NCBI GenBank assembly: GCA_964016885.1 | Contig: OZ024748.1 | Location: forward strand, 10,664,001-10,728,000 | Length of the DNA stretch: 64,000 nucleotides | From: Eledone cirrhosa | Taxonomy: Eukaryota | Direction of reading: 5' to 3' | Shown here: in pieces, positions 55,933-56,933 of the stretch | How the letters are laid out: each line of letters starts with the position of its first letter | Position numbering within the stretch: position 1 is the first letter of the stretch | The notes under the pieces: generated by a model | The model's database searches: none | Told to the model about the DNA's origin: nothing | What the model saw: the letters and a program-made list of their open reading frames with translations, nothing else | Position numbers and translations under genes: made by a program

Positions 55933-56794
55933 CTGAAGAAAAAACAGCATGGCTTTATTATCATCATCATCATCAATATCATTATTATTATTATTATGCA
56001 TAGCATCATTATCATCACCATCAGCAGCAGCTGCATTACCACAATCACCACCATCGTCCTAACCATCACCATCATCATTATTATTACGCACATCATCACC
56101 ATCACCACCATAGTCATCACCATCAGCATTATTATTATGCATATCATCATTAATATATTTTTTTACAGCTGCTTTTCCCATCTTGCATGGGTTGGGACAA
56201 GGCTTTTGGGGGCTGGTTTTCAATGGCTAAATGCCTAACACCGATACTTGACCATAGGTTTGTTGGATAAGGACTGACCTGGGGTTAAACAGCAACAACA
56301 TTACATGCTGTCCACTATGTAGTACTGCTCGTACACCTGGGACAGTCCTGCTACCCCCCCCCCCCCACACACACACACATCCTGGACCAACTATGAGTCA
56401 GTGATGTTACTACACACACACATCTAAGACCTGCAACGTACTACTGGCCTCACATCTGGGAAAGTGCTAATGTTACACACCCAACCACATGCACCCTAGA
56501 ACCATAATGGACCACTACTACTACTACTACTACTACAGACACACAGTGGAGTACATCTCCCACATATGTGGCAGTGTTGTTGTCACACACACACACACAC
56601 ACACACCGACACTCTAGGGAAAATCTGAGGTTGTTTGAGGCAGCTCCAGCTGGTTTGCTTGAATGCTTCCTAACCCAAGATGGAGAAAGAAAGATATATA
56701 TATAGTAGAACATTGGAGGGTTATATCCGCAGTAGTAGATCACTCAGTCCATAGGACGAGTTTGGTAGAAGTAGTTCCACAAGTTATTCACCAT

Positions 56795-56844
56795 TTCCAA
56801 GAACAATTTGTTTCACCTAAGACGGATCATCAGCTGTTATGGAA
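56795..56844 (-). ncRNA. Candidate minimal type I hammerhead ribozyme
   Basis: TTCCA-TAAC-AG CTGATGA T-CC-GTCTTA-GG-T GAAA CAAATTG TT CT-TGGAA. Confidence 0.55.
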
Positions 56845-56933
56845 CTACTACTATATATATCATCATACGTCCGCTTTTCCCTGCTTGCAAGGGTGGGACG
56901 GCTCCAATTGTATATTTATTTATATATATATAA

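Follow-up and report, generated by a model that had tools for sequence, protein, structure and literature searches.

A hammerhead motif broken by a two-armed insertion, probably of Penelope-like origin, near ATP2C1 in Eledone cirrhosa

Introduction

Truncated Penelope-type ends that carry hammerheads have been described in many animals; giant squid has 235 Rfam hammerhead loci, and hammerheads are also reported in octopus (Hydra-1_Obim, in the available part of PMC8557442). As far as the accessible text of that paper (Craig et al. 2021) goes, insertions of EN+ Penelope-like elements (PLEs) consist of an inverted 5'-truncated copy with a one-sided tail, placed in (TA)n targets; in its File S2, by our own count, stem II has a U.U base in 14 of the 26 Hydra-clade rows, where loop III measures 1-4 bases and the cleavage sites are mostly of the GUU or GUA type. 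For inverted junctions, palindromes and microhomology are described in the part of PMC3846280 that was available. According to the accessible sections of PMC4209133 (Cervera and de la Pena 2014), PLE hammerheads are predicted to need a dimer and have little activity alone, and single minimal ones did not cleave in vitro.

Here we describe an insert in a 64-kb stretch of Eledone cirrhosa DNA (contig OZ024748.1; the whole stretch is called the window below). The insert is probably a dead, 5'-truncated, two-armed 3' end of a PLE, or of a non-autonomous repeat using the enzyme of one, and its hammerhead is predicted not to cut since only two of the six inferred native stem I pairs remain.

Results

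The insert lies between two short TA tracts, beside the 5'-most ATP2C1 exon that we could find:

56703-56853 region, hammerhead on the minus strand (the ATP2C1 strand): the insert
56694..56704, no strand: left TA tract, 11 nt, target of the long arm's 3' end (from sequence and read loose ends)
56852..56860, no strand: right TA tract, 9 nt (from sequence)
55714..55934, minus: nearest ATP2C1 coding exon found, acceptor AG at 55934-55933, about 770 bases downstream of the insert; context, outside the element

The product of this exon matches ATP2C1 of Octopus bimaculoides (88%) and of Argonauta hians (77%), the two matches among nine candidates, and the ATP2C1 exons extend along the minus strand between 55932 and about 32979. 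In both relatives 27-39 residues precede the part encoded by the exon that starts at 55932, and no upstream coding exon was found in 55933-64000, where the best scores were 20-31 against up to 42 elsewhere in the window. Given the splice acceptor, the earlier residues in the relatives and the outcome of the exon search, the insert probably sits in an ATP2C1 intron, in sense orientation and within the pre-mRNA, where the initial annotation had placed it on condition that the first exon lies upstream.

Several other features mark this part of the window. A homogeneous 39-bp minisatellite (54935-55743, 20.7 copies, 97%) begins at the donor end of the ATP2C1 exon 55932-55714 and has one frame open. 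CpG content peaks locally at 57601-58000 (observed/expected 1.29), with a second peak at 63601-64000; candidate minus-strand splice signals near 57720 and at 57665-57642 fall within the first peak, which is possibly an alternative ATP2C1 first exon or promoter. Between two oppositely oriented copies of a very high-copy short repeat, at 56857-56906 (where depth reaches 2.5 million) and 57218-57266, lies a tRNA-derived SINE-like element with its start at about 56944 and a weak Rfam tRNA match. Further off lie a tRNA gene (3574-3646, minus, 70.3 bits in Rfam, anticodon UGU (Thr) in the alignment) and, at about 60200-62800 (minus), a decayed stretch that by eye resembles a LINE reverse-transcriptase remnant.

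The hammerhead and the hairpins that follow it are made up as follows:

56834..56835, minus: remnant AG of the native stem I 5' strand (ACCGAG in the read consensus; read loose ends at 56835)
56833-56827, minus: CUGAUGA core block (from sequence)
56826-56815, minus: stem II, U-CC/GG-U, with U.U at the base, two C-G pairs and a 6-nt loop; pair probability 0.03-0.18
56814-56811, minus: GAAA core block (from sequence)
56811-56803, minus: stem III, ACAAAUUGU, near-palindromic (from sequence)
56802..56811, minus: GUU triplet with stem III; predicted cut between 56802 and 56801
56796..56801, minus: stem I 3' strand, CUUGGA in the window, CUCGGU in the read consensus
56765..56780, minus: small hairpin GUGGAA/UUCUAC, a predicted fold whose 3' side is the inner end point
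56742..56761, minus: tail hairpin ACUC-GUCC/GGAC-U-GAGU, four core pairs at probability 0.95-1.0; the repeat's most widely shared part

The core CTGATGA, the U.U-closed stem II, GAAA, the near-palindromic stem III and the GTT triplet are thus all where the initial annotation had put them on the minus strand, and so is the second hairpin after the core. The blocks CUGANGA, GAAA and NUH come in the C-G-S order that is ordinary for a type I hammerhead; a scrambled, type-SGC or Naiad block order, to judge from the available descriptions, is rejected, as the order here involves no non-circular permutation.

Statistical support within the window is slight. The bare core pattern occurs once against 1.62 expected and in 73 of 100 shuffles, which is not significant, and a loose stem descriptor has the hammerhead site as its sole match in the window, a result barely above chance (6 of 100 shuffles also match). 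A descriptor requiring four contiguous stem I pairs matched nowhere in the window, and Rfam returned no hammerhead match to the insert, either above the gathering threshold or with the E limit relaxed to 10. In this copy only two contiguous stem I pairs adjoin the core, and stem II consists of the U.U plus two pairs. The (TA)n tracts are there, short as they are, and the whole insert folds only slightly better than its shuffles (z -1.44, 14/200). That the motif is real is argued from the read family and not from this copy's own fold.

Six runs of one organism were listed for the reads, and four of the six were aligned to 56610-56935 at 80% likeness. The read organism shares only 0.17 of its words with the window, no piece spans the locus, and it may be another species, so that part of what we call decay may be divergence between species. 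In run X1 the summed contig depth was 3-11 far out on the left, about 1,200-2,600 across most of the hammerhead and as much as 65,000 at the tail hairpin; such depth is no copy number, and the pattern shows a high-copy repeat. The family has its fixed 3' end at 56703: in two RAD runs, 439 and 485 reads pass from the element into (TA)n at 56702. At the other end 23 and 24 contigs run past 56835 into sequence absent from the window, and the family extends at least 30 bases beyond 56835, which is the upstream extent visible in the reads; no reverse transcriptase was linked to the family within those 30 bases. The initial picture of an intact 150-bp element thus gives way to a copy of something longer that breaks off within stem I and carries an inverted piece at that end.

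The read consensus also supplies a stem I. By eye it reads ACCGAG ahead of the core, beyond 56835, and CUCGGU after the cut site, at loose ends at 56782 (889 and 935 reads); together these make six Watson-Crick stem I pairs, the strands coming from separate read sets and not from one molecule, with agreement of 0.70-0.73 and 0.87-0.88 and a blurred contig consensus at 56782. The four pairs that are missing from the window would match by chance about once in 256, and 56799 is A>G in 1962 of 2230 depth units in run X1. Read depth is highest at the tail hairpin, whose stem positions 56747-50 and 56754-56 are without a variant among those listed; likewise, no compensatory pair change appears among the per-position variants listed (5% cut-off). 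We conclude that the hammerhead in the window is real but broken, and the read family bears out the proposal that a multi-copy repeat carries a Penelope-associated type I hammerhead here. That the likeness arose by chance inside an unrelated repeat is scarcely credible: the core pattern at chance level, the lack of an Rfam match and the weak stems would fit, but the six-pair stem I of the read consensuses, the Hydra-type U.U, the short stem III and a position 97-99 and 36 nt from two TA-flanked ends all argue otherwise.

Relatives were sought more widely. The 64-kb window holds no second copy of the insert and no tandem copy. An 11-base motif is absent from the PMC8557442 supplement, whose sequences are line-wrapped and partly cut, so that a match can be missed; the family did not match the published octopus element ends compared. 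The literature searched, with subscription papers, Repbase and Dfam outside its scope, held no paper on the family. A pattern scan of metagenome and viral contigs gave no relative beyond the core in any of the 126 loci listed (at least 119 metagenome, 7 viral). Among these are two observations in their own right. Eleven metagenome contigs (L017, L020, L023, L030, L031, L035, L071, L079 and L080, all at about 370-480 around the match, and also L088 and L099) form a low-GC repeat family with a U.U-closed core and a 4-pair stem II, in which none of 11 predicted pairs is compensatory and which is unrelated to the window element beyond the core; only L035, with a 7-pair stem I and a GUA site, passes the descriptor, and the others look decayed at the cut site. 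The viral contig L121 (401-428, minus) carries a complete-looking U.U-closed type I hammerhead with a 6-pair stem I, a 5-pair stem II and a GUC site.

The anatomy and inactivity of the copy would be the same if its parent were not a protein-coding PLE but a non-LTR retrozyme, one of the tandem repeats with units of a few hundred bases that give rise to small circular RNAs, of which the copy would be a single truncated unit. According to the accessible parts of the retrozyme literature, canonical type I hammerheads of metazoans are consistent with a 6-bp stem I and a short stem III, retrozyme monomers are common, and an origin from PLE ends has been proposed for retrozymes; stem II of the axolotl HHR_Amex2 also has a U.U at its base. 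The window contains no tandem copy, and the 3' loose ends of the reads enter (TA)n and not another unit, with 30 upstream bases visible. We consider a retrozyme unit an unlikely but serious alternative, one that overlaps the PLE reading in so far as the latter allows a non-autonomous parent.

The part of the insert above the core probably explains why stem I is broken. Two arms can be told apart:

56703..56835, minus: long arm, the family 3' end, 5'-truncated two bases above the hammerhead core (from read depth and the contigs past 56835)
56834..56853, plus: short inverted arm, a reversed copy of 56766-56785, head-to-head with the long arm

Positions 56834-56853 and the inverted 56766-56785 are identical at 15 of 17 bases, a match reached by none of 2000 shuffles, and the arms meet in a palindrome, CAGCTG, at 56831-56836. 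Opposite-strand joints at 56783/56833 and 56762/56832 are each seen in one contig, in runs X1 and X3 of the same sample. The short arm ends in UUCUA, the letters also found at the outer end of the long arm about 60 nt further on, and seven contigs of run X1 start at this inner end point behind a TA-like flank (loose end at 56786). The stem I proposed initially (TTCCA/TGGAA) fails on this evidence: it has two contiguous pairs at the core, and its TTCCA strand lies in the inverted duplicate of 56766-56785 and so is not native, being predicted to pair mostly with its own template. What is left of the native stem is two of six pairs, only the AG of the 5' strand remaining.

With a (TA)n target at its fixed 3' end, an inverted 5'-truncated arm and a one-sided tail of about 60 nt, the insertion shares these features with Hydra-like EN+ PLE insertions. 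A joint from 56704 to 56852, as expected of an empty site, was seen in two contigs, one per run, from two runs that belong to the same sample, with a short side of 22 bases; this is too weak as evidence of a polymorphic insertion.

Folding was assessed by secondary-structure prediction, which takes no account of dimers, proteins or tertiary contacts. Holding the core in its active fold costs 9.6 kcal/mol over the minimum for 150 nt of RNA and 10.3 kcal/mol for 351 nt, and the core-proximal stem I pairs have a predicted probability of 0.0; the inverted strand is predicted to pair with its own template at 0.74-0.84, against 0.02-0.19 with 56799-56795. As long as the template is missing from the nascent RNA, the predicted probability of the distal TTCCA helix is 0.94-0.98, the bases beside it in the inverted strand capture GUU, the core-proximal stem I pairs stand at 0.0 and the active fold is still 8.6-9 kcal/mol above the minimum; the competing template helix is predicted to appear 10-30 nt later in transcription. 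The one motif used for comparison, the intact-looking one of the metagenome contig L035, keeps stems I and II in its minimum fold. The stem III of the window can form a self-duplex of 8 pairs with a central A.A (-3.4 kcal/mol), which in the model fits dimer cleavage in intact copies; no dimer partner for the hammerhead is found in the 64 kb.

The effect on ATP2C1 pre-mRNA implied by the initial annotation is, on these predictions, unlikely, with two of six native stem I pairs left, the active fold 9.6-10.3 kcal/mol above the minimum and no second copy in 64 kb. For the copy to cleave the pre-mRNA during transcription, the inverted arm would have to patch stem I, giving two pairs, a 4-base bulge and five more pairs. 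The core letters are all intact, the orientation is sense in a probable intron and the distal helix is predicted to form before the competing template is made, but the nascent core-proximal pairs and the energy cost just given, the competing helix that follows and the want of a dimer partner in 64 kb speak against it, as does the failure of eight of nine tested vertebrate retrozyme dimers to cleave, as given in the available part of the published record. We hold such cleavage to be very improbable.

An altogether different topology would make the family a relative of the Naiads, which share the (TA)n target. Its scrambled or extra-strand fold would pair the strand after CUGAUG with the tail at 56725-56730. 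Six pairs are possible, the read majority at 56730 converts a G.U to A-U, the stem II-tail pairing is predicted at 0.72 when the inverted arm is omitted, and by eye there are short collinear likenesses to the 3' ends of Naiad_Obim and Naiad_Ovul from the CUGAUGA block to the last 20 bases, which may be chance in AT-rich sequence. Yet the pairing of the stem II strand (56822-56827) with this tail is not above chance and was rejected: shuffled tails pair as well in 198 of 1000 cases and give as long a run in 928 of 1000. Moreover, the block order is the ordinary C-G-S one, Naiad ends having GAAA before CUGAUGA, and three of the listed variants, at 56725, 56726 and 56728, disrupt the pairing, while the list has no matching change in the partner strand. 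We hold this Naiad-related reading to be very improbable.

Also very improbable, in our view, is a self-limiting family hammerhead. Here a strand of the tail, about 95 nt downstream, would displace the weak 2-pair stem II and restrict cutting by the ribozyme to transcription or to the dimer, and the two hairpins, each followed by UUCUA, would mark two fixed start points for reverse transcriptase. If true, this would be a ribozyme switch tied to Penelope-type priming signals; the reading of two fixed start points was checked on the one row of seven X1 contigs only.

Discussion

The layout of the insert (inverted arm, one-sided tail, (TA)n) matches the published PLE layout in the accessible part of PMC8557442, and its junction palindrome matches the available account in PMC3846280, which supports a PLE origin; against it stand the 2-pair stem II, where published U.U rows have 3-5 pairs, and the lack of a match by eye to Hydra-1_Obim. 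On the PLE reading, an endonuclease would have opened the TA tract and reverse transcription would have begun at the outer end of the RNA, running for about 133 nt through the hammerhead core before this first cDNA came to a halt at the AGCT palindrome in stem I. The second cDNA, roughly 20 nt long and primed at the inner end point about 60 nt upstream or by fold-back of the first cDNA, would then have been joined to the first through 2-4 bases of microhomology; twin priming and fold-back predict an identical junction. Where a family member is intact, its hammerhead would trim the precursor RNA by cutting after GUU, probably in a dimer formed by way of the near-palindromic stem III. The copy in the window would ride silently in the ATP2C1 intron and is probably ordinary genomic debris.

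As truncated ends of this sort are known from many animals, the single locus matters little. The insert is a clean small example of a two-armed insertion that cuts through a ribozyme and creates a spurious stem I, a pitfall of which motif scans should be wary, and the family's 2-pair stem II would offer a useful test of the smallest working helix II.

Among described systems, several stand close. Metazoan non-LTR retrozymes, in the accessible text of PMC7229834 (Cervera and de la Pena 2020) and bioRxiv 10.64898/2026.07.22.740005, likewise have a type I hammerhead in a short non-coding repeat and are often intronic (about 43% of Xenopus copies), as the insert probably is; at the window locus neither a tandem unit nor a unit length was seen. 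The PLE hammerheads with minimal or small palindromic helix III, as described in the available part of PMC4209133, are similarly for the most part single and scattered, come from truncated elements and have a palindromic helix III. Their minimal form has a helix II of 6-8 bp, an extra base after A9 and G10.1-C11.1; given its very short U.U-closed helix II and real helix III of 2-3 bp, the window hammerhead is not of that form. With type-SGC hammerheads (Eckert et al. 2023, PMC10085705, available part) it has the three core blocks in common, but here they stand in the ordinary type I order C-G-S.

There is a close likeness to the Hydra-clade PLE 3' ends, as far as PMC8557442 could be consulted: type I order, the U.U at the base of stem II, a near-palindromic stem III with a loop of 1-4 nt, a GUU/GUA-type site and the (TA)n target are shared, as are the inverted 5'-truncated second arm and the one-sided tail, and the ribozyme there stands roughly 35-120 nt from the 3' end (our own arithmetic on five rows), as it does here. 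Unlike those ends, this one has a tail of about 60 nt against 30-40, shows by eye no likeness to Hydra-1_Obim, and has a broken stem I in this copy. To judge from the sequence, the hammerhead resembles the Hydra-clade ones, a likeness at the 3' end only, with no reading frame linked, and so not a clade assignment. With a U.U in 14 of the 26 Hydra rows and in HHR_Amex2, in the parts of those sources available, its odd-looking features are already known; what sets it apart from the published U.U rows appears to be a stem II of two pairs in place of 3-5.
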